A stretch of DNA of 13,194 nt, taken from positions 1 through 13,194 of IMG/VR virus record IMGVR_UViG_2690316066_000016; one strand, given 5' to 3'. This document shows, piece after piece, positions 1-13,194 of this stretch; position 1 is the first letter of the stretch, and each line of letters opens with the position of its first letter. The notes under the pieces are model-generated. The model was given only the letters and a program-made list of their open reading frames with translations, searched no databases and had not been told where the DNA came from. The DNA comes from a virus. Its lineage: Duplodnaviria > Heunggongvirae > Uroviricota > Caudoviricetes. Made by a program: the position numbers and the translations under genes.

Positions 1-1
1 C

Positions 2-691
2 GCTGAGCTTACCGCTGAGCTTAACATGCGTAAAAAACAATACAACTACTATCGCGACCAGTTATTTAGTTTTGGTGCCCACGATGTTAAACGTCTGAAA
101 TTAGGAGAGCTATGTGTAATTGGAGACGGTTTGCATGGTACTCCAGAATATGACGCCAACGGTGATTATTTCTTTATCAATGGAAACAATTTAGGCTATC
201 AAAAAATATCATTTAACGATAACACAAAAAAGGTTAATGATTCTATGTTTAAAAAACACGGAATTCATTTTGACCCAATAAATACTGTTTTCCTGTCAAT
301 TAATGGCACAATTGGAAATGTTTCCTTTTACAATAATGAGAAGATCGTACTCGGTAAGTCTGTGGCCTATTTTAAAATTAAATCACCTGAACTCCACACT
401 AGATATCTTTTCTATTTCCTGCAGACCAATTACGCAAAACAGTATTTTGAAAATCAAAAAACAGGTTCAACTATTAAAAACTTAGGTTTAAAATCGTTGA
501 GAGCATTTGAAATACCTATCCCATCATACGATGAACAACTTTATATCGTCGCCACGATGGATAAATTTTACAACCTGACAAACTCCATCACCGAAGGTCT
601 CCCGCGTGAAATCGAGTTGCGCCAGAAACAATACGAATACTACCGTGATTTACTGTTCAGTTTCCCGAAACCTGAAACTGTCAGTAATTAA
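2..691 (+). CDS. hsdS: Type I restriction-modification specificity subunit HsdS, 5'-truncated by the window edge (C-terminal target-recognition domain plus conserved tail)
   Basis: Frame opens at the window edge with [22 protein letters not shown] (central conserved region) and ends ...[20 protein letters not shown], the duplicated conserved motif typical of HsdS. The ATG at 26 is internal, not the true start. hsdR follows on the same strand. Confidence 0.8.
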
Positions 692-813
692 TTGACCATT
701 GCTACCGATCGGGCCACCTTAACACCCGGTCAGTATATAGACTATTTTTTTACGCGCCGGAAGTCACTCTTAACGCCCTTCCGGCTCTTGCCAGGCGGCA
801 CAAAGGATGCGCT

Positions 814-3800
814 ATGACTCATCAAACACACACCATTGCTGAATCCAATAACTTTATCGTCCTTGATAAGTACATCAAAGCTGAGCAAACAAGCGACAGC
901 TACCAGAGCGAATCGGACCTGGAACGTGAACTGATTCAGGACCTGCGGAATCAGGGTTATGAATTTATTTCGGTAAAATCACAGTCAGCGATGCAGGCCA
1001 ACGTTCGGGAACAGCTTCAGAGCCTCAATGGTGTGGTGTTTAATGACAGCGAGTGGCGGCGTTTCACGGAGCAGTATCTGGATAACCCGAGCGATGGCAT
1101 TCTGGATAAGACCCGTAAAATCCATATCGACTATATTTGCGACTTTATTTTTGATGACGAGCGTCTTGAGAACATCTATTTGATAGATAAAAAGAATCTC
1201 ATGCGCAATAAGGTGCAGATTATCCAGCAGTTTGAGCAGGCGGGTTCTCATGCTAACCGTTATGACGTCACGATCCTGGTTAATGGCTTACCACTGGTAC
1301 AAATCGAACTGAAAAAGCGCGGCGTGGCGATTCGTGAGGCTTTCAACCAGATACATCGTTACAGTAAAGAGAGTTTTAACAGCGAAAATTCCCTGTTTAA
1401 GTATCTGCAACTGTTTGTCATTTCTAACGGCACCGATACCCGTTACTTTGCCAACACCACAAAGCGCGATAAAAACAGTTTTGACTTCACCATGAACTGG
1501 GCGAAATCAGACAACACGCTGATTAAAGACCTCAAAGATTTTACCGCTACCTTTTTCCAGAAACATACTCTGCTTAATGTTCTGGTGAACTACAGCGTGT
1601 TCGATATTAGCCAGACGCTACTGGTGATGCGACCGTACCAGATTGCCGCTACCGAACGGATCTTATGGAAAATCAACAGTTCCTATAAAGCGAAAAACTG
1701 GTCTAACCCCGAAAGCGGTGGCTTTATCTGGCACACTACCGGTTCCGGTAAAACACTGACCAGCTTTAAAGCCGCGCGCCTGGCAACAGAACTGGACTTT
1801 ATTGATAAAGTCTTCTTTGTGGTCGACAGGAAAGACCTCGATTACCAGACGATGAAGGAATATCAGCGTTTTTCCCCAGACAGCGTCAACGGCTCGGAAA
1901 ATACCGCAGGCCTTAAACGAAATCTGGATAAGGACGATAACAAAATTATCGTCACCACTATTCAGAAACTTAATAACCTGATGAAAGCAGAAAGCGACCT
2001 GCCTGTATACAATCAGCAAGTGGTGTTTATATTTGATGAATGTCACCGCAGCCAGTTTGGAGAAGCGCAGAAAAATCTGAAGAAGAAATTCAAACGCTAT
2101 TATCAGTTTGGTTTTACCGGCACACCTATTTTCCCGGAAAACGCTTTAGGCTCAGAAACGACCGCCAGCGTATTTGGTCGTGAATTGCATTCATATGTGA
2201 TTACCGATGCGATTCGTGATGAAAAAGTGCTCAAATTCAAGGTGGACTATAACGATGTGCGGCCCCAGTTTAAATCTTTAGAGACAGAAACCGACGAGAA
2301 AAAACTGAGTGCGGCTGAAAATCAGCAGGCGTTTCTTCATCCCATGCGTATACAGGAAATTACGCAATATATTCTGAATAACTTCCGCCAGAAGACCCAC
2401 CGTACTTTCCCAGGTTCCAAAGGCTTTAATGCCATGCTGGCAGTGAGTAGCGTGGATGCCGCGAAAGCCTATTACGCGACGTTTAAACGGTTACAAGAGG
2501 AAGCAGCTAATAAATCGGCTACCTATAAACCGCTGCGTGTTGCGACAATCTTCTCCTTTGCCGCCAATGAAGAACAAAATGCCATTGGTGAAATTTCCGA
2601 TGAAACTTTTGATACCAGCGCAATGGACAGCAGTGCTAAAGAGTTTCTTGACGCTGCAATTCGTGAGTATAACAGCTATTTTAAAACTAACTTCAGCACC
2701 GACAGTAACGGTTTTCAGAACTACTATCGTGATTTAGCCCAACGGGTTAAAAATCAGGATATCGATCTGTTAATTGTCGTTGGGATGTTTTTAACCGGCT
2801 TCGACGCTCCAACATTGAACACGCTATTCGTCGATAAAAACTTGCGTTTTCACGGCCTGATGCAGGCATTCTCCCGCACCAACCGCATTTATAACGCCAC
2901 TAAAACCTTCGGTAACATCGTCACTTTCCGGGATCTGGAACGCTCAACCATTGATGCCATAACGCTGTTTGGTGATAAAAATACCAAAAATGTAGTGTTA
3001 GAAAAGAGTTATGCAGAGTATATGGAAGGCTTTACTGATGCTGCCACTGGTGAAGCTAAACGCGGCTTTATGGCAGTAGTTTCAGAACTGGAACAACGGT
3101 TCCCTGACCCTGCCAGTATTGAAAGTGAAAAAGAGAAGAAAGACTTCGTTAAACTGTTTGGTGAATACCTGCGTGCCGAGAACATCCTGCAAAACTATGA
3201 TGAATTTGCCACGCTGAAAGCCCTGCAACAAATCGATCTTAGCGATCCTGTTGCGGTAGAAAAATTCAAAGAAGAACATTATGTGGATGATGAAAAGTTC
3301 GCTGAATTACAAACGATTCGTCTCCCTGCTGAACGCAAGATTCAGGATTATCGTTCTGCCTATAACGATATTCGTGACTGGCAGCGCCGCGAGAAAGAGG
3401 CTGGCAAAAAAGAAAAGTTAACTACTGACTGGGATGACGTGGTTTTTGAAATCGATTTGCTGAAGTCTCAGGAAATAAACCTGGATTATATCCTTGGACT
3501 GATTTTCGAACACAACAGACAAAACAAAGGTAAGGGCGAAATGACCGAAGAGGTCAAGCGCTTAATTCGTTCGAGCCTTGGGAACCGTGCCAAAGAAGGT
3601 CTGGTGGTCGATTTTATTCAACAAACAAACCTGGATGATTTGCCGGATAAAGCCAGCATCATTGACGCGTTTTTTACCTTTGCTCAACGCGAACAGCAAC
3701 GTGAAGCAGAAGCATTGATCAAAGAAGAAAATCTCAATGAAGAGGCGGCGAAACGCTATATTCGCACGTCTTTAAAACGCGAATACGCCACCGAAAATGG

Positions 3801-3930
3801 CACGGAATTAAACGAGACATTGCCAAAACTCAGTCCGTTAAATCCGCAATATAAGACGAAAAAACAGACGGTTTTCCAGAAGATCGTCGCGTTTATTGAG
3901 AAGTTTAAAGGTGTAGGCGGGCAGATATAA
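814..3930 (+). CDS. hsdR: Type I restriction enzyme R subunit HsdR (1038 aa), EcoR124I-like (type IC) by length and context
   Basis: N-terminal PD-(D/E)xK-like nuclease region ([19 protein letters not shown]), helicase motif I HTTGSGKT, motif [12 protein letters not shown] (DExH). AAGGA sits 6 nt upstream of the ATG. The 1038-aa length matches my memory of EcoR124I HsdR (not verified here). Confidence 0.9.
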
Positions 3931-3944
3931 TGTATTAATCCGAA

Positions 3945-3974
3945 CCTGATCTGGCAGATAGCTGTCAGATCAGG
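3945..3974. repeat. Imperfect 13-bp-stem inverted repeat immediately downstream of hsdR (CCTGATCTGGCAG-ATAG-CTGTCAGATCAGG)
   Basis: Read directly from the sequence; one mismatch in the stem and no T-tract after it, so it is not a canonical intrinsic terminator. Possibly an mRNA 3' stabiliser or protein-binding site. Confidence 0.4.
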
Positions 3975-4114
3975 ACTGAGCTAATACAAATTAATATCGA
4001 ACCGAAAATACCAACGCCTGTACCAACATTTTTCGTTTGCGATGGGTTGGAATTGGTTAGCCCTGAGAGAGTTAAAATAGCGAGAAAGATAGGTAACTAA
4101 CGGATTTCAGACAC

Positions 4115-4137
4115 AAAAAAAGCCGCTCTTGAGCGGC
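4115..4137 (-). terminator. Rho-independent terminator on the minus strand, downstream of the tRNA-Leu 3' fragment
   Basis: Plus strand AAAAAAA-GCCGCTC-TT-GAGCGGC; on the minus strand this is a GC hairpin followed by a T7 run, 17 nt after the tRNA-like CCA end. Confidence 0.6.
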
Positions 4138-4154
4138 TCGATTTGCATACGATG

Positions 4155-4185
4155 TGGTGCCGAAGGCCGGACTCGAACCGGCACG
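4155..4185 (-). other. 31-nt 3'-terminal fragment of a tRNA-Leu gene (T-arm, acceptor 3' strand, CCA); putative att core of an integrated element
   Basis: Minus strand reads CGTGCCGGTTCGAGTCCGGCCTTCGGCACCA, matching from memory the 3' end of E. coli tRNA-Leu (leuX-type). Upstream sequence has no matching 5' acceptor strand (no GCCGAAG...), so this is not an intact tRNA. An integrase gene starts 134 nt away. Confidence 0.6.
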
Positions 4186-4318
4186 GGTTATAGCGACTTA
4201 GCTTGCTTCAACAATCATCGTTAACTTGTTGAACTAGTTAGACTAAAGCTCATGACCCCGGCACATTTCACAGACTGTTTAGCCATGAAAAAGCCCCGAC
4301 AACATAACCGGGGTTTGT

Positions 4319-5527
4319 ATGAGTTTCAAGAGAGATCGTTATCTAGTTTTAGATCCCTGCGGGAATTACCTCGTGCGGATAGCTATCCCCAACTACATGC
4401 GCCACCTGTTCCAAGGGAAGCGCTACTTTATGAAAAGCACAGGGACACGCGATGTACGCCAAGCGCGATTGTTTCGGGATGCTATTGCTCTGGAATGGAC
4501 TCGCTTACGGAATCTGCTAAAGCCGCAAGGCGGCTCGTCTGTAGATCAAATCATTGATGAGCTACGCCGTGTCAGTGTGTACGCCAAGGAAGCCCCCACA
4601 TCATTTGGTGCATCAGTTCAGTCTTGCCCTTCCCTACTTAAAATGCGCGATCTGTATCTTCTCCAATACAGCGAGAAGAGAAAGCTAACGACGCTATCCA
4701 AGACCAACAAAGCCGTAGAGATGCTGTTAACCCACCTGAAAAAGAAAGATGTTCAGTTGCGGGATATAAACCGAACCATAGTTACAGGCTGGTTAGATAA
4801 GCTCAAAACTGAGCGAGCGCCCCAAACTATCCAAAACTATATAAGCGCACTGGCACAGATATGGGACCTGGCACGCAATCGCTATCACGATGCGCCACAA
4901 GACAATCCTTGGCGCGGTCATGCGCTCGAAGCAAAAAGCAGCAAGGTCAGCTATGAAGTCTTCGCACCGGGTGAGCTGGCAAAGGTCTATGCTTTGCTTG
5001 ATGACGAGATGAAAGCGGTAACGGCTATTGGTGCATACAGCGGTATGCGGATCAATGAAATATGTACCCTACGTGAAAGCAGTATTAAAACTATCGAGGG
5101 AGTTTTGTGCTTTGAGATCACCGAGGGGAAGACCAAGAGCGCGGCGCGAATCGTCCCAGTACACAGCAAGCTAATCCCCCTCGTGAAATCATTGCTCAAA
5201 ACCACACATAGCGGTTTTCTGTTCTATCACGCATCAATTACAGACCGGGCCGATGGGAAGCGCTCAACGTGGCATACGCAGCAATTCACGCGAGCAAAGC
5301 GTAAAGCTCTTGGCGAGCTTGCCGCAGAGAGAAAAGTGTTTCACTCACTCCGCCATGCTTTTGTGCAACAGCTCGACCGCGCTCAAGTGCAAGAGGATAG
5401 AATCGCGCTACTGGTAGGCCATGAGCGTGGAAGTACAGAAAGTTTCAAAACCTATTCACGAAATAGCGCCTCAACGATTGAACTTAAAAAATACGTCGAA
5501 TTGTTGTCATATAAAGACATCAGGTAG
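4319..5527 (+). CDS. Tyrosine-type site-specific integrase (phage/island integrase)
   Basis: C-terminal catalytic signature: Arg in GMRINEICTLR, HxxR box HSLRHAF, LVGHE, and a Tyr in KTYSRNS about 35 aa after HxxR. Lies next to the tRNA-Leu att-like fragment. The start is uncertain; downstream Met codons are possible. Confidence 0.85.
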   Translation: MSFKRDRYLVLDPCGNYLVRIAIPNYMRHLFQGKRYFMKSTGTRDVRQARLFRDAIALEWTRLRNLLKPQGGSSVDQIIDELRRVSVYAKEAPTSFGASVQSCPSLLKMRDLYLLQYSEKRKLTTLSKTNKAVEMLLTHLKKKDVQLRDINRTIVTGWLDKLKTERAPQTIQNYISALAQIWDLARNRYHDAPQDNPWRGHALEAKSSKVSYEVFAPGELAKVYALLDDEMKAVTAIGAYSGMRINEICTLRESSIKTIEGVLCFEITEGKTKSAARIVPVHSKLIPLVKSLLKTTHSGFLFYHASITDRADGKRSTWHTQQFTRAKRKALGELAAERKVFHSLRHAFVQQLDRAQVQEDRIALLVGHERGSTESFKTYSRNSASTIELKKYVELLSYKDIR

Positions 5528-5578
5528 ATAAAAAACACTTGCGAAATGGATTAATTTTTCACTTAAATTATTTGAGCA

Positions 5579-5605
5579 GGCTGCGCTATTAATTCAAGCG
5601 CAGCC
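5579..5605. terminator. Perfect 9-bp-stem hairpin (GGCTGCGCT-N9-AGCGCAGCC) between the convergent integrase and TIR genes; candidate bidirectional terminator
   Basis: Inverted repeat read from the sequence, located in the 83-bp gap between two convergent stop codons (5527 and 5611). Flanks are not strongly T-rich, so terminator function is inferred from position only. Confidence 0.35.
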
Positions 5606-5610
5606 AATCG

Positions 5611-6225
5611 TTACCATAGTCTAGGTTTAGCTCGGATAGCAGGAACTGTATCTGCATTTCTTTTAACAGCAGGATTCATAATTGCTCGCTTATTAAATGC
5701 TTCATCAATATATGTTTCGCAATCAGCAATAAAATCGGAATACCTTACCACTGCACAATACACTTCCTCATCGGTGTAATGCGGAACTGTTTTTTGAAGA
5801 CGATGATTACCTTGTACCAGATAAGGAAGATATAGTGTATAACCAGTAGAAATCTGCCTTAAACTCACTCCGCAGTTACATCGAAAGTCAGAACATACAG
5901 CATCGGTAAAAACTTCATTCCAGATTTCATCTCTGACGACACCTATCAATCCCGCTGGATTTTCACCCCATAGAGATGCTTGAATTTCTGAGTTCACAAA
6001 TGGACGTTGGGCGGTCTCTCTCCCGATAAGCACAACAGTAACTGTAGTATCAGCGAGATATTCCTCGCGTATCTTACGCATGATGTATTCTTCACTTACA
6101 TCAGTACTAATGTCACCGTCGCTTACGGATTTATCGATAAAAGATTCCCCACCATACGTCTCTATTATACTATCTTTTAAATCCTGTTCATTAGCATGAT
6201 GATAACTTAGAAATGTTTTATGCAT
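5611..6225 (-). CDS. TIR-like domain protein, ThsB-like (DUF1863-type); likely start at the Met codon 6225-6223, with an alternative in-frame ATG at 6237
   Basis: N-terminus KTFLSYHHANEQDL and core TVTVVLIGRETAQRPFVNSEIQASLWGENPAGLIGVV follow the ThsB/TIR-like pattern as I remember it (F-[ILF]-S-[YF]-H...D, then VLIG..T..R.[WF]V..EI with the conserved Glu). GGAG sits 6 nt upstream of the 6225 ATG. Its start overlaps the upstream gene's stop as TAATG. Confidence 0.7.
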   Translation of the reverse strand: MHKTFLSYHHANEQDLKDSIIETYGGESFIDKSVSDGDISTDVSEEYIMRKIREEYLADTTVTVVLIGRETAQRPFVNSEIQASLWGENPAGLIGVVRDEIWNEVFTDAVCSDFRCNCGVSLRQISTGYTLYLPYLVQGNHRLQKTVPHYTDEEVYCAVVRYSDFIADCETYIDEAFNKRAIMNPAVKRNADTVPAIRAKPRLW

Positions 6226-6962
6226 TAGTTGCTCCATTTATCCATGTCAATACTAAACTGGCTGGCAACACTATCTTGAAAGAATTTATTCAGCTCAGTG
6301 AAATCATTAACAAGTTTATTAAAATGATAATAGTAAGTCTGAATTTTACCGATTGGTGTCAGATGATACCTAAGAACAATTGCTTCACCATCAGGTTTCT
6401 CGTCAATTTTAACTTCATCTTTATCTGAGACGTATTTATGCCAGCGCCTATAATTATTTTGGTGCTCAGTCAGAAATGCATTTAGTTTTTTGAGCATAGT
6501 ATTCGCCAACATATATAACTCAAGATCTTTTTTCCTTTTAATATTCAGAACTCGCATCTCAACACGAATAAACTGATAGACCTCGTAGTAAGAATTAAAT
6601 ACCTCATCAAAAGCATCCTGCTGAACGTTTATTTTAAAAAGCGTCCTTTTCGTGTCGAGAAAATTCTGTATAGACTTTATGAAAAGGGCATCAGAGTTAT
6701 CAAAAAGAATATTTAAACCGCCAAAATTAAGCCGTTCAACTTTAAACGAATATTTTCTATTCATCATGCCATCTAATAGAAAGATAGCCACAATGATTAA
6801 TACAACTACAGAAAGTAGAGAACTAAGTACCCCAATATTTTGAAGTAAACGCTTACCGAAGGTTATATCTTCCGACGTTGGTAACTGAACAGTTCCCAAG
6901 AGCGCAATAACAACTATGCAAACAGACCCCCACACAACCCATCTCTTGTACATAAGCATCAT
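6225..6962 (-). CDS. Membrane protein with two N-terminal TM helices and a roughly 180-aa cytoplasmic domain of unknown family; candidate effector/partner of the TIR protein
   Basis: Hydrophobic stretches WVVWGSVCIVVIALLGTV and NIGVLSSLLSVVVLIIVAIFLL, with positive residues before TM1 and after TM2 (N-in/C-in). No family motif recognised in the C-terminal domain. Start ambiguous among three ATGs (6962, 6959, 6953); AGGA is best spaced for the 6953 ATG. Very AT-rich. Confidence 0.6.
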   Translation of the reverse strand: MMLMYKRWVVWGSVCIVVIALLGTVQLPTSEDITFGKRLLQNIGVLSSLLSVVVLIIVAIFLLDGMMNRKYSFKVERLNFGGLNILFDNSDALFIKSIQNFLDTKRTLFKINVQQDAFDEVFNSYYEVYQFIRVEMRVLNIKRKKDLELYMLANTMLKKLNAFLTEHQNNYRRWHKYVSDKDEVKIDEKPDGEAIVLRYHLTPIGKIQTYYYHFNKLVNDFTELNKFFQDSVASQFSIDMDKWSN

Positions 6963-6981
6963 CCTAAAACGCAGTTTAAAA

Positions 6982-7010
6982 ACTATACAACGATGTTTTT
7001 AAGAGTGGAA
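6982..7010 (-). promoter_or_regulatory. Candidate sigma70 promoter for the 2-TM/TIR operon (-35 TTCCAC, 17-nt spacer, -10 TATAGT on the minus strand)
   Basis: Hexamers read by eye on the minus strand upstream of the operon start; the -35 is weak (3 of 6 matches). Not experimentally supported. Confidence 0.3.
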
Positions 7011-7035
7011 GTCCTAGTTATCAGACACATTCTGC

Positions 7036-7066
7036 TTAGCCTACGCATCTCTATTGTGTAGGCTAA
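7036..7066. repeat. Perfect 9-bp inverted repeat (TTAGCCTAC-N13-GTAGGCTAA) between the phage genes and the TIR/TM operon
   Basis: Read from the sequence. Lies 20 nt downstream of the endonuclease VII-like gene stop and just upstream of the candidate promoter: either a terminator hairpin for the phage gene or an operator. Confidence 0.4.
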
Positions 7067-7086
7067 TGCAATGAACTTAAGCCCAG

Positions 7087-7533
7087 CTAAGTAAGTTGCT
7101 CAGTTTTATGGGGATAGATAACTCCTATCCCCTTGTACTGGCGTCGGTAACTTACCAACATTACGCTCATACTGTCGTGGGCCAGTCCACATAAACTTCC
7201 TGCATAATAGCCTCCCTCGGCAGCGTTAGCAGATCGATGCACCACAGCACGCACGCGCCCGGTTCGGTGGCAGTGATCCAGCACGGCAGACCCAAGGCGC
7301 AGCGGCTTACCTGTCACTGCACAGCGTCGGTATTGATAATTCCACAAGAAGACACGGACAGTAGCCACATCAGCGCGACGCAGCTCCAGCCGTCCTGAAC
7401 CATTCAACAGGAAGTGATACACATCATCGAACGCAGCAGAATTTTTAATGCGTTCAGGCAACGGCGTATTGCCGAGATATTCCAGATATCCCCGCATCGC
7501 TTTTCTTAGTAGTTGGTCTGTCCGTGTAACCAT
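7087..7533 (-). CDS. Phage endonuclease VII-like (HNH-superfamily) protein, apparently degenerate in the zinc-ligand positions
   Basis: Motif CAVTGKPL...AVLDHCHRTGRVRAVVHRSANAAEG resembles the endonuclease VII signature (CxxC ... DHxHxTGxxRGxLCxxCN..G), but with CxxT and HxxA where the Cys pairs are expected. GGAG lies 10 nt upstream of the ATG. Confidence 0.5.
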   Translation of the reverse strand: MVTRTDQLLRKAMRGYLEYLGNTPLPERIKNSAAFDDVYHFLLNGSGRLELRRADVATVRVFLWNYQYRRCAVTGKPLRLGSAVLDHCHRTGRVRAVVHRSANAAEGGYYAGSLCGLAHDSMSVMLVSYRRQYKGIGVIYPHKTEQLT

Positions 7534-7805
7534 GATTCAAAGTCTCCACTGTCAGATGCAGCCCGTTTGCAGGCTTCGTATTCTTCGCGCTGGCGTTGGC
7601 ATACCAGAGCATAAAGCTCGACGGCCATCGCATTAACACGTTCGTCACTGATACCATTGCGGCGCATCAGCCCCAGCAGCTTACGAAATTTAGCTTCAAG
7701 CTCAGGCTCTCCGGTATCCATTACCCACTGTTTCAGGTCAGCGAGTGCGCCAGTCATTGGCGGCGGCTCGATGTACCGCCACCTTAATTTAATCGTGGTT
7801 ATCAT
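7506..7805 (-). CDS. Hypothetical phage protein (about 99 aa from the RBS-supported start; the ORF extends to 7853)
   Basis: Open frame with GAGAGGA 8 nt upstream of the ATG at 7805-7803, which overlaps the 3' end of the upstream gene (stop at 7789). No recognisable family. Confidence 0.45.
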   Translation of the reverse strand: MITTIKLRWRYIEPPPMTGALADLKQWVMDTGEPELEAKFRKLLGLMRRNGISDERVNAMAVELYALVCQRQREEYEACKRAASDSGDFESWLHGQTNY

Positions 7806-8214
7806 CTTCTTTATCCTCTCTGTAAGCCGGGTGCATTGCTCGGTATTGCTCAATGGTCAAACCCTCGCTGGCCGCTGCAAACCGTTCCTTTTGCTTACCC
7901 GCCAATCGCAAGGCGCTGTCTCTCCAGCAGAGCAGAAAGAAGATGGTCAGCACCTGTTTACTCAAGCCATCCAGAAGATCGCCAAGTCCTTGCTCAAGCA
8001 GACAGGCACGCCATGCAGCGGCGTGCTCAGTCATCGCACCTACTATCGGGACAGGTGCGCCGAGCATTGTCGCAAGCTGACTCATAACACTATTAGCATC
8101 GCCCGGATGCAGCCGGGGAATAGTCATGCGGCCAGCCTGCGCCAACAGCTCGTCGTACCGCTGGCGGCGTGGGTCATCACCTGCCAGCGACCTAATCGGC
8201 TTTTCATCAGCCAT
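7789..8214 (-). CDS. Hypothetical phage protein (141 aa)
   Basis: Open frame with a strong RBS (GGAGG 8 nt upstream of the ATG at 8214); co-directional and tightly packed with neighbouring phage genes; no family recognised. Confidence 0.5.
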   Translation of the reverse strand: MADEKPIRSLAGDDPRRQRYDELLAQAGRMTIPRLHPGDANSVMSQLATMLGAPVPIVGAMTEHAAAWRACLLEQGLGDLLDGLSKQVLTIFFLLCWRDSALRLAGKQKERFAAASEGLTIEQYRAMHPAYREDKEDDNHD

Positions 8215-8232
8215 TAATGGAACCTCCGAGGA

Positions 8233-8742
8233 TTAGGCAGCCTGCAATAAATCGGCTGGCGTTGAGGGATGGTATCTGGCTTTAGCTTTCAGGTACGCAA
8301 CACGCGCCGCAGCTTCGGTAGTGAATAAGCCAAGGTGATGACGTACACCATCAACACGAATATAAGCCTCCCATTTACTACTACCCTTATTCCAGCTATA
8401 CCCTCTTGCCCTGCGTCGATTCTGGTCGTTTTCCCGCTGCGTAACCAATCGCAGATTGCATAAGCGGTTGTCGTCACGGATACCGTTGATGTGATCGATC
8501 TGCATACCGTGGGGAATAGCACCATGCGCAAGAATCCACGCCACGCGATGGGCTTTTAGCTGGTACTGCTTGCCATCAAGTCGCAGGGCAACTTGACGAT
8601 AGCCATCAGCTCGACGGGTGGAGTCGGCATAGGTGCCAACCTTAACCCGGCGTCGGTTAGCTTTATGTTGCAGGCGGCCTGTCACCGGGTCATATAGGAA
8701 AAGGGAGAGCAGTAGCTCAGGGGCGTAAGCATCATTAACCAT
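8233..8742 (-). CDS. HNH homing endonuclease with a C-terminal AP2-like DNA-binding domain (phage-type)
   Basis: HRVAWILAHGAIPHGMQIDHINGIRDDNRLCNLRLVTQRENDQN is a classic phage HNH (HNH_3-type) motif; C-terminal SKWEAYIRVDGVRHHLGLFTTEAAARVAYLKA resembles an AP2 domain. Confidence 0.8.
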   Translation of the reverse strand: MVNDAYAPELLLSLFLYDPVTGRLQHKANRRRVKVGTYADSTRRADGYRQVALRLDGKQYQLKAHRVAWILAHGAIPHGMQIDHINGIRDDNRLCNLRLVTQRENDQNRRRARGYSWNKGSSKWEAYIRVDGVRHHLGLFTTEAAARVAYLKAKARYHPSTPADLLQAA

Positions 8743-8758
8743 GACTCAGCCCCTCCAG

Positions 8759-9754
8759 TTACACAGCTTGTCGGAAATTGATAACGCAGTCAGGACGACG
8801 CAGCCCAACGTTGAACAGGCGATATGAGTCCATCACCATTGTCATTTCGCGCTCATCATCCCACTGGCGATTAATGACGCTCTGCGCTTCGACCGTCAGC
8901 AGCACAGAGGAAGGTTTAAATAGCGTCGCCCTCGTCAGCGCTTCCTCTGCGGTAACATCATAATCAGCGCCCAGTTCATGCCCGGTGATGGCTTCCTGCG
9001 GGTAACTGTTGAGTTCAATGACTCGCACCCCAGCGACATAGCCAACGCGACGCCATGCGTAATCGTTGCCACTATCCCGGCTGTAACGGACGTTCATCAG
9101 CTTCTTATGCTCCATCAGGATGCTGAACCAAGCCGGGTCGATAAGCAGTACCAGCTCCGCCACCGGAATATCTTTCTCAGTCAGGAATCGATTAACAGCA
9201 GCTTTAATAGCGTGAACCAGCTCATTTGCTGCGTCCTCTTCACTACCCGTGGTCAGGTTGAGCGGGACAACGTTATCCGTAAGCGGGTTAAACGTTGGTT
9301 GCAGTGTCGGCGGTGGTACAAAGTCAGTCGCTTTGATTAGCTGGGTGGTGTGCGCTTCGTCGTAGAATTTAGCGTGAGCAGTACCCATATTGCGGCTCAG
9401 TTCTGCGCGAAAGGTGGGCGCTGTCCAGTCGTCCTGATAGTCAATCGGGACGCGGATATAGCTCAGCGTATCCACAGAGATAACCAACTTGTCCGACTTA
9501 ACGGCGGTAGGCTCCAGCGATTGCCCTGCGGTTCTGCCCTTCACCTCAAGATCACCACCTAGGCGATCAATGCGGTATTGGTTGCTGTTTTTCAGCGGCT
9601 TGTATGTGCTTAGCCCCTCTGCGAGAAAGACGCTCTTTGCCTCAAGGCGGGTCTGAACGTCCCGATCATACGCTTCAATGTGAATGTCGTTGTCAGCATC
9701 CACACCGCCCCAGTGCGGGCGGAATTGGTCAGGGGTATAAACATTGTCAGTCAT
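8759..9754 (-). CDS. Phage major capsid protein, T7 gp10-like (HK97 fold), putative
   Basis: Blocks KSDKLVISVDTLSYIRVPIDY, IKAAVNRFLTEKDIPVAELVLLIDPAWFSILME and RVGYVAGVRVIEL align by eye with T7 gp10 regions as I remember them (KVITIDGLL..., LTKNYVPAADRVFYCDPDSYSAILAA, NVMGFEVVEVPHL). GGAG lies 8 nt upstream of the ATG. Homology is from memory, not a search. Confidence 0.5.
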   Translation of the reverse strand: MTDNVYTPDQFRPHWGGVDADNDIHIEAYDRDVQTRLEAKSVFLAEGLSTYKPLKNSNQYRIDRLGGDLEVKGRTAGQSLEPTAVKSDKLVISVDTLSYIRVPIDYQDDWTAPTFRAELSRNMGTAHAKFYDEAHTTQLIKATDFVPPPTLQPTFNPLTDNVVPLNLTTGSEEDAANELVHAIKAAVNRFLTEKDIPVAELVLLIDPAWFSILMEHKKLMNVRYSRDSGNDYAWRRVGYVAGVRVIELNSYPQEAITGHELGADYDVTAEEALTRATLFKPSSVLLTVEAQSVINRQWDDEREMTMVMDSYRLFNVGLRRPDCVINFRQAV

Positions 9755-9821
9755 AGAAATAGCTCCAGCGCCAGCAGTAGCCAGCGTGATTTATGAAAAG
9801 AGAAAGAGAGAATGGGAGGAA

Positions 9822-10169
9822 TCAGGCAGCAGCTTTTTCAGCAGCCACCTCAAGAATCAGGCCGATAAGCGCGAAAGCGGGCCATTGGGGATTAAGCTCG
9901 TGCAGGTGCGCAACGCCTCCACCAAAAGCATCGCGCATGTCAGCACCAGAGATGCCAGAGCGTTTGGCCGCCCGCCGCAGCAATCGCAGCTCAGAGCTGG
10001 GAACATACGCCGAGGGCATACGCACGCCAAAGCGTGAGGCGAGCCGCCGCCAGTGAGTTTCATCAGCAAAGTCTTGTTTAAGCTGGCTGGCGTTGGCTTT
10101 CCAGTGTTCAATCTTTGCTCTACGGGCAGCCCTAGCCGCTGCCACGTTTTCAGGTGTCAGTAAGGTCAT
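9822..10169 (-). CDS. Hypothetical phage protein (115 aa)
   Basis: Open frame co-oriented with the phage module and preceded by a 160-bp intergenic gap; weak RBS; no family recognised. Confidence 0.4.
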   Translation of the reverse strand: MTLLTPENVAAARAARRAKIEHWKANASQLKQDFADETHWRRLASRFGVRMPSAYVPSSELRLLRRAAKRSGISGADMRDAFGGGVAHLHELNPQWPAFALIGLILEVAAEKAAA

Positions 10170-10329
10170 TGTCAGATCTCAATGCAAAATGGGTTTATGT
10201 GTGGTGTTTGAGAGGTAATTTCGCGTTTTACAGGCGCAGGTATACGAATGCACATCTGGCGATGTACAACGCGATTCAGGCTCTAAAACATAAGGTTAAG
10301 ACGTGGGGAAGACAGGACAGGGCAATTGC

Positions 10330-11409
10330 TTAGCGGCCAGCGCGCTTGCCAGCGGAGCGCTGCGCAACCAGATCGCGGTATTGTTCGTCGTACTGGCGAT
10401 GACCGGGGCCATACCCCGATTGCAGCGCCCACTGCGAAAGCTGGTCATACGCTGCAATAAATTCAGCATGAGACATCCCGACAGGTTGCGCGGTAGGCTG
10501 GCCATGCTGGGCATAACCAGTTTGTGAACCGCCAGCCATACGCTCTTGCAGATACTGAACCGCCCGCTGCATCTGAGCAGGGTCGCCAGACATAACCATC
10601 CGCTCAAGGGTAGATTGCGTCCCGGCATCGAGCGTGCCAGCATATTGCAACATCGCGTCAACTGTACCCTGCCCTAACTGACTTTCTATGGACTGTTGAA
10701 ACTGCCCCATTAACCCTTGCAGCTCGGCGGTATACTCGACAGCCGTCCAGCCATCTTTCATGGTGCGGATCTCTTTTTTACCCGCGTTGACCATTGGCTC
10801 GATGGTGAACGTCATCCCAGGTTTCAGTACGACGTTGGTTTCACGGGAGTCATAGTGCAGCACCTGCGGTTCTTCATGGAAGCCGCGACCAATACCGTGT
10901 CCACAATATTCACGAACGACGGAGAAGCCTTCTGCTTCGACAAACTTCTGAATCGCCGCACCGATTTCGCGCAGGTTAATGCCTGGTTTGACCATGCGCA
11001 GCGCCAGGTACAGGCTTTCTTGCGTGATGCGGCACAGACGTTCGCCCATGATGGTCGGCTTACCGACGATAAACATTTTCGAGGTATCGCCGTGGAAACC
11101 ATCTTTGATTACGGTGACATCAATGTTAACGATATCGCCATCTTTCAGCAGCTTCGCATCGTCCGGGATACCGTGGCACACCACTTCATTAATAGAGATG
11201 CAAACGGATTTCGGATAGCCGTGATAGCCGAGGCAGGCAGAAACCGCGTGTTGTTCATTAACAATGTAATCATTACAGATGCGATCCAGCTCGCCGGTGC
11301 TGACGCCCGGTTTAACATACGGTTCGATCATCTCCAGCACTTCGGCAGCCAGTCGGCCAGCGACGCGCATTTTTTCGATATCTTCTGGGGTCTTGATTGA
11401 GATAGCCAT
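10330..11409 (-). CDS. map: Chimeric ORF: methionine aminopeptidase Map residues 1-222 fused in frame to 137 aa of unrelated (phage-like) sequence; native Map C-terminus (42 aa) missing
   Basis: Translation matches E. coli Map from MAISIKTPEDIEKMRVAG... through ...KKEIRTMKDGWT, then diverges to AVEYTAELQGLMGQFQQ... Nucleotide homology to map stops at about 10743. Position divergent from rpsB matches the known map-rpsB arrangement. Confidence 0.85.
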   Translation of the reverse strand: MAISIKTPEDIEKMRVAGRLAAEVLEMIEPYVKPGVSTGELDRICNDYIVNEQHAVSACLGYHGYPKSVCISINEVVCHGIPDDAKLLKDGDIVNIDVTVIKDGFHGDTSKMFIVGKPTIMGERLCRITQESLYLALRMVKPGINLREIGAAIQKFVEAEGFSVVREYCGHGIGRGFHEEPQVLHYDSRETNVVLKPGMTFTIEPMVNAGKKEIRTMKDGWTAVEYTAELQGLMGQFQQSIESQLGQGTVDAMLQYAGTLDAGTQSTLERMVMSGDPAQMQRAVQYLQERMAGGSQTGYAQHGQPTAQPVGMSHAEFIAAYDQLSQWALQSGYGPGHRQYDEQYRDLVAQRSAGKRAGR

Positions 11410-11554
11410 TAATTCTGTCCATCAGCGTCGGTGATACCGACAATATATATGTAAGTGCCGTCAATGGTATCACACCCGGGCAAATTGAGAATCATTCTGA
11501 ATTTCGCCAAACGTGCCACTGAACGTTTTCTATAATAGAAAATTCAACGTCTGA

Positions 11555-12502
<948 letters not shown>

Positions 12503-12676
12503 TAAGGCTTGATAACTCCCCCAAAATAGTTCGAGTTGCAGAAAGGCGGCAAGCTCGAGAATTCCCGGGAGCTTACATCAGTAAGTGACCGGGATGAGCG
12601 AGCGAAGATAACGCATCTGCGGCGCGAAATATGAAGGGGGAGAGCCCTTATAGACCAGGTAGTACACGTTTGGTTA

Positions 12677-12702
12677 GGGGGCCTGCATATGGCCCCCTTT
12701 TT
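12677..12702 (+). terminator. rpsB-tsf intergenic hairpin with T-tract (GGGGGCC-TGCATAT-GGCCCCC-TTTTT); attenuator or partial terminator
   Basis: Perfect 7-bp GC stem followed by five T residues, between rpsB and tsf as expected for the rpsB-tsf operon. Confidence 0.6.
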
Positions 12703-12759
12703 CACTTTTATATCTGTGCGGTTTAATGCCGGGCAGATCACATCTCCGAGGATTTTAGA

Positions 12760-13137
12760 ATGGCTGAAATTACCGCATCCCTGGTAAAAGAGCTGCGTGA
12801 GCGTACTGGCGCAGGCATGATGGATTGCAAAAAAGCACTGACTGAAGCTAACGGCGACATCGAGCTGGCAATCGAAAACATGCGTAAGTCCGGTGCTATT
12901 AAAGCAGCGAAAAAAGCAGGCAACGTTGCTGCTGACGGCGTGATCAAAACCAAAATCGACAGCAACTACGGCATCATTCTGGAAGTTAACTGCCAGACTG
13001 ACTTCGTTGCAAAAGACGCTGGTTTCCAGGCGTTCGCAGACAAAGTTCTGGACGCAGCTGTTGCTGGCAAAATCACTGACGTTGAAGTTCTGAAAGCACA
13101 GTTCGAAGAAGAACGTGTTGCGCTAAACACAGCCTGA
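12760..13137 (+). pseudogene. tsf: Elongation factor Ts, truncated: only the N-terminal ~122 codons are tsf-like, then three unrelated codons and a stop
   Basis: Translation [43 protein letters not shown]...[11 protein letters not shown] matches E. coli EF-Ts (283 aa), then reads NTA-stop. Nucleotide homology ends at about 13124; the remaining roughly 70 nt are of unknown origin. Confidence 0.85.
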
Positions 13138-13194
13138 ATAAACGGACTGTAGCTGTCGATATCAGCCACCATCACGATGATGTCGCGCGGAGTA

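Follow-up and report, generated by a model that had tools for sequence, protein, structure and literature searches.

Large tandem duplications are reportedly found in Salmonella and E. coli, and those known have mostly arisen between rrn operons, IS elements or REP repeats. A housekeeping gene can also have its homology interrupted by integration, as with e14 and phage 21, which insert in the 3' part of icd and supply a replacement end. In E. coli, alternative end-joining is furthermore said to proceed with capture of genomic fragments, and draft assemblies of short reads may contain chimeric contigs and misjoins, caused by chimeric fragments in the library or by wrong paths in the graph that stop at a branch.

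The window considered here, i.e., the whole stretch of DNA analyzed, corresponds to contig CDRY01000009.1 (13,194 nt; assembly GCA_001373235.1) in its entirety, as established by an exact look-up of its 125-aa product. It is a mosaic of three blocks (1-10743, 10744-13124 and 13125-13194) which, in finished E. coli genomes, map to widely separated regions of the chromosome. The first block, read on the plus strand and 100% identical to CCQX01000002.1, contains a partial hsdS (hsdS'), hsdR, 31 nt of a tRNA-Leu gene (att, 4155-4185) and, of a satellite integrated at leuX, the left 6.6 kb. The second block, 100% identical to E. coli, runs from a truncated map through rpsB to a truncated tsf: the 5' part of map lies on the minus strand (10744-11409; codons 1-222 of the 264 of MetAP, the C-terminal 42 codons being missing), rpsB is intact on the plus strand (11777-12502), and the 5' part of tsf follows on the same strand (12760-13124; codons 1-121 of EF-Ts and two bases of codon 122, with the G68S allele). 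The third block is an internal fragment of recC on the minus strand, antisense to tsf, which covers codons 404-426 plus 1 nt and reaches the physical end of the contig. A search of the window against Rfam retrieved the t44 leader (11663-11749) and CssrA in the rpsB-tsf spacer (12588-12697), both intact and in their usual E. coli placement; nothing else was found around rpsB, and no feature coincided with the 70-nt tail. Strain 15A is 100% identical to the contig in both the hsd piece (1-4185) and the tsf piece (12400-13124).

The left end of the contig (window 1-25) falls inside a 12-bp tandem repeat, (ACCGCTGAGCTT)x3, encoding TAEL in hsdS. The identical cut HsdS product occurs on five contigs in all, and at least one Logan assembly contig (SRR28368731, 4,184 nt) begins at the first base of the window and stops at the att boundary (4184). 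A k = 31 graph would be expected to pass through a 28-nt repeat unbroken, so heterogeneity in the number of repeats may be involved in the contig end within hsdS.

When compared with the systems introduced above, the contig shares with draft short-read misjoins a join no further than about one k-mer or read length from where the contig ends, sides that are colinear with distant single-copy loci and ~100% identical to the references, the lack of this join in finished genomes, the cutting of essential genes and a second misjoin nearby; unlike such misjoins, it displays an identical join with an identical end in a second assembly, and a flush 7-nt complementarity at the breakpoint. Large enterobacterial duplications have in common with it the head-to-tail polarity, and a duplication would here too leave intact gene copies and give truncated extra ones at the join, whereas a tsf-recC junction with 0-nt overlap, placed inside two genes and requiring an arc of ~1.9 Mb that includes oriC, sets it apart from them. 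As in the case of e14 and phage 21, homology to a housekeeping gene stops abruptly in mid-gene, yet antisense recC takes the place of a substitute 3' end of tsf, a stop follows after 3 codons, and neither an att repeat nor an integrase is found at the junction. Alternative end-joining would match the blunt or 1-nt joins and the discrete 2.4-kb chromosomal fragment held between unrelated sequences; it differs in that nothing points to a break having been repaired or to the sequence resuming at its original locus, and in that a second contig has the tsf-recC junction without the upstream one.

The interruption of tsf is unambiguous in the deposited sequence. In a megablast comparison with window positions 12400-13194 as query, the best matches spanned query bases 1-725, and in 5,426 of 5,426 complete E. 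coli genomes the DNA identity of tsf ended at 13124, inside codon 122. Read base by base, tsf proceeds as ...GTTGCGCT|GGTAGCGAAAA, the bases past the breakpoint beginning with GGTAGCG, while ...GTTGCGCT|AAACACAGCC stands in the window, where codon 122 (CTA, Leu) takes its third base from the recC piece. The resulting chimeric ORF (12760-13137, plus strand) encodes 125 aa, namely EF-Ts residues 1-122 followed by N-T-A and a stop codon at 13135-13137, and its precomputed match to the Pfam family EF_TS is weak. The original prediction had placed the cut in tsf after about 122 codons, with divergence and a stop three codons later, and both statements proved accurate; the continuation of a full-length tsf, which would have contradicted them, was looked for and was not seen in CDRY01000009.1. 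Only 122 of 283 codons are kept, and the contig lacks the full-length 283-aa EF-Ts with its N-terminal domain, core and C-terminal module. Since both flanks match known loci exactly, the break is a genuine property of the sequence as deposited and not due to chance.

The retained EF-Ts residues (1-122) are identical to those of K-12 at 121 of 122 positions, G68S being the sole difference. The codon concerned (12961-12963) changes from GGC to AGC, and the allele is rare. Among the top-scoring complete genomes, G68S is common only to E. coli O111:H21 strain 15A, to which the tsf part of the window is 100% identical at the DNA level, and in the protein collection full-length EF-Ts with G68S was recorded on 193 contigs, the complete strain 15A included. 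The lineage normally carries a full-length tsf.

The last 70 nt (13125-13194), which had been described as unrelated to tsf and of unrecognized source, are indeed foreign to it and match the inside of recC, encoding the gamma subunit of exonuclease V. The fragment has a single location in 5,425 of the 5,426 complete E. coli genomes and is 100% identical in 3,722 of them; in strain 600468 it is antisense to recC, and it ends exactly at the boundary of codon 426. No match was obtained in the phage collection, and in the few records listed as plasmids (0.36-4.9 Mb) matches were restricted to the tsf part of the query. A base-by-base comparison of the junction gave a 0-nt overlap, and neither terminal repeats nor a target duplication. 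The possibility that the sequence downstream of tsf marks a rearrangement breakpoint holds as a description: a new join of loci ~1.9 Mb apart is present, and a second one lies at 10743|10744, but a chimera is likelier than a rearrangement of the genome.

The two junctions are similarly poor in shared sequence. At the tsf-recC junction (13124..13125) 0 nt are shared, and at the junction between the satellite gene and map (10743..10744) 1 nt is common to both sides (C at 10743), so that at neither was found the shared sequence of at least 2-3 nt that marks MMEJ or template switching. Local similarity within 20 nt on either side of both junctions was unremarkable (local-alignment test, p ~0.1). 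Joins sharing 0 and 1 nt fit blunt chimeras and not recombination at repeats. A direct 6-nt match, TGCGCT, is also observed at the tsf-recC junction, with its two copies offset by 3 nt. Flush with each breakpoint is a 7-nt stretch that the join removed, GGTAGCG from tsf and CGCTACC from recC, and these two are exact reverse complements (window 13118-13131). This arrangement, which was noticed after the fact, has p ~8e-5 for a random join; blunt ligation gives no explanation for it, and nothing similar occurs at the junction with map.

With respect to geometry, strains 600468, 300709 and 214-4 each show tsf and the recC piece aligning to the window in a common orientation, which corresponds to head-to-tail polarity. 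The distance from tsf to recC on the shorter arc is ~1.95 Mb in strain 300709, roughly 40% of the chromosome, and the breakpoints fall on opposite replichores, 0.949 Mb and 1.001 Mb away from oriC (NZ_CP025903.1, positions 358,879, 3,285,062 and about 4,285,980). This near-symmetry about oriC may be a coincidence, having roughly a 2% chance.

The junction between the satellite gene and map lies 2.38 kb upstream of that between tsf and recC. It creates an in-frame fusion ORF of 359 aa (10330-11409, minus strand), in which a satellite gene encoding 226 aa in relatives is joined to MetAP codons 1-222, and the fusion protein was found on CDRY01000009.1 only. In relatives that are 99.9-100% identical the satellite is intact, and in CCQX01000002.1 the copy runs on to leuX and ahr. 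Its genes encode an integrase, a ThsB-like TIR protein, an endonuclease VII, an HNH endonuclease and a major head protein (phrog_267). The interrupted gene shows a 12-nt indel (GCCAGCGCGCTT; window 10336-10347) with respect to a related copy, which accounts for the 222-aa or 226-aa versions in relatives. As for the cargo of the satellite (4155-10743), the ThsB-like TIR protein (5611-6237) adjoins a 245-aa protein without a family match, and the two could constitute a Thoeris-like defence pair with an undescribed partner.

The tsf-recC join was found in 0 of 5,426 complete E. coli genomes, tsf being present in all of them and the recC piece in 5,425, and it was absent from plasmid and phage records; scans with the exact 38-nt junction gave no match in viral, genome-representative and JGI metagenome contigs. 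Seen from the other side, a protein consisting of RecC up to residue 426 and a 52-aa antisense-tsf tail was absent among ~15 billion proteins, hence no assembly on record reads through the junction from recC. The exact 125-aa product was on record on two contigs only, CDRY01000009.1 and CCBW01000148.1, and not in the relative CCQX, which is 100% identical to the first block. CCBW01000148.1 (26 kb, GCA_000939035.1) carries the tsf-recC junction, ends at the same base 70 nt past the join, and shows 100% identity with window positions 10743-13194. Further upstream it has the normal context, from dgt to glnD and on to a full-length map, without the junction seen upstream in CDRY01000009.1.

Partial proteins expected at matching contig ends were searched for in the collection, in which cut products are not always recorded, a limit that applies to all these look-ups including the one derived from a k = 71 prediction: absent were EF-Ts 100-283 and 123-283 and RecC 1-426 (with a guessed allele), together with G68S EF-Ts 1-120, 1-121 and 1-122, MetAP 1-221 and 1-222, and the C-terminal 136 or 137 aa of the satellite gene. 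A hotspot of contig breaks in tsf was considered as well, given contigs of other E. coli assemblies that start at EF-Ts residues 112-136 and one that ends at residue 120, breaks that seemed to cluster around residues 101-136; it was rejected, since the spread of the start points resembles random breaks across very many assemblies.

Taken together, we consider that the truncation of tsf probably reflects a chimeric or misassembled contig end and not a feature of a living genome. Both tsf and map are essential in E. coli according to the Keio collection, and the essentiality of map has reportedly been shown elsewhere too. The truncated tsf (122 of 283 codons) and map (222 of 264) cannot for this reason be the only copies in the cell. 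A chimera of assembly or library origin is likelier than a rearrangement because the join is placed 70 nt from the end of the contig, an essential gene is cut, and none of the 5,426 finished genomes has the join; two blunt joins in mid-gene, less than 2.4 kb apart, are moreover what concatenated or mis-threaded fragments give, and this favours an artefact. According to this explanation, the contig would string together three unlinked pieces of the chromosome of one E. coli lineage. The tsf-recC join would have its origin in chimeric DNA molecules or reads of the library, or else in the assembler taking a wrong path in its graph, and the contig would stop 70 nt further on, where the chimeric path meets ordinary recC; the 70-nt tail would equal the k-1 overlap if a de Bruijn assembler had been run with k = 71. 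In the real genome tsf, map, recC and the satellite would all be expected to be intact, read support for the join would be poor, and intact copies of the genes would be present in the same isolate.

Some observations count against a chimera. The join is identical in two deposited assemblies, a recurrence that is unlikely for a random chimeric read as it needs both assemblies to stem from the same DNA or reads, and both assemblers chose the path from tsf into recC over the rest of tsf, suggesting that the join was not a rare read. The consensus is also error-free on either side of the junction.

These observations bear on a first alternative, which we regard as unlikely though deserving serious attention, namely that the tsf-recC junction is a real junction of the duplication type, fixed in the lineage, with intact tsf, map and recC in the other copy or, in a variant, an excised circle spanning recC, oriC and tsf. 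The assembler would then have collapsed the duplicated DNA and halted where the path of the join meets normal recC, and the junction between the satellite gene and map would represent a further rearrangement inside the redundant copy. The base-for-base recurrence of the junction in two assemblies, one of which has a normal upstream context, and the threading of tsf into recC by both assemblers are in line with this possibility, as are the same-strand arrangement of tsf and the recC piece in the three strains, i.e., the polarity of a tandem duplication, and the flush 7-nt complementarity, improbable under a random chimera; a duplication would also leave the essential genes with intact copies. 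It needs, however, an arc of ~1.95 Mb, about two fifths of the strain 300709 chromosome, and not one of the 5,426 finished genomes has the join. At the edge of a duplication, contigs are expected to break at 13124 and not 70 nt beyond. No recorded contig ends at 13124, none begins at the matching overlap positions tested for this allele, and read-through products are likewise missing from the records. Only 2.4 kb away, a further blunt rearrangement of independent origin would be required as well.

Very unlikely, in our judgement, is a capture of fragments in vivo, in which a double-strand break in the satellite or elsewhere would have been repaired by E. coli alternative end-joining, the mosaic existing beside the normal loci. 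The discrete 2.38-kb block enclosed by a blunt and a 1-nt join would suit this process, and the pieces fit one lineage, the hsd and tsf pieces both being 100% identical to strain 15A, while the recC piece is uninformative on lineage because it is 100% identical in most genomes. A single captured fragment nevertheless misfits CCBW01000148.1, where the tsf-recC junction occurs on an uninterrupted 26-kb native context without the upstream junction; such captures are very rare in natural isolates, and there is no sign of the mosaic's return to the chromosome.

Highly improbable, too, appears a real tsf-recC junction arising from a template switch between sister replication forks. The nascent leading strand of the clockwise fork would have switched to the lagging-strand template of its sister, in agreement with the observed polarity, and the two template strands could pair through the flush 7 nt, the product being a duplication centred on oriC or a circle. 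The similar distances of the two breakpoints from oriC in strain 300709, on opposite arms, also enter into this speculative reading.

The suggestion that the tail is the end of an inserted element, be it an IS, a transposon or a prophage in tsf, has nothing in its favour other than the abrupt loss of homology inside tsf and can be rejected outright, since BLAST of the 70 nt gave the interior of recC, a core gene, at 100% identity and at a single place in 5,425 of 5,426 genomes, with no phage match, Rfam feature, terminal repeats or target duplication, and since tsf is essential.

If the chimeric contig end is the correct explanation, CDRY01000009.1 is not evidence for a disrupted tsf or map, for a rearranged satellite or for a 359-aa MetAP fusion, and the 125-aa and 359-aa "proteins" in public collections are spurious. 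If, instead, the join is true, it would be a rare illegitimate duplication join, independent of repeats, that interrupts two essential genes in an E. coli lineage found in nature, and it would have a modest bearing on how large duplications form.
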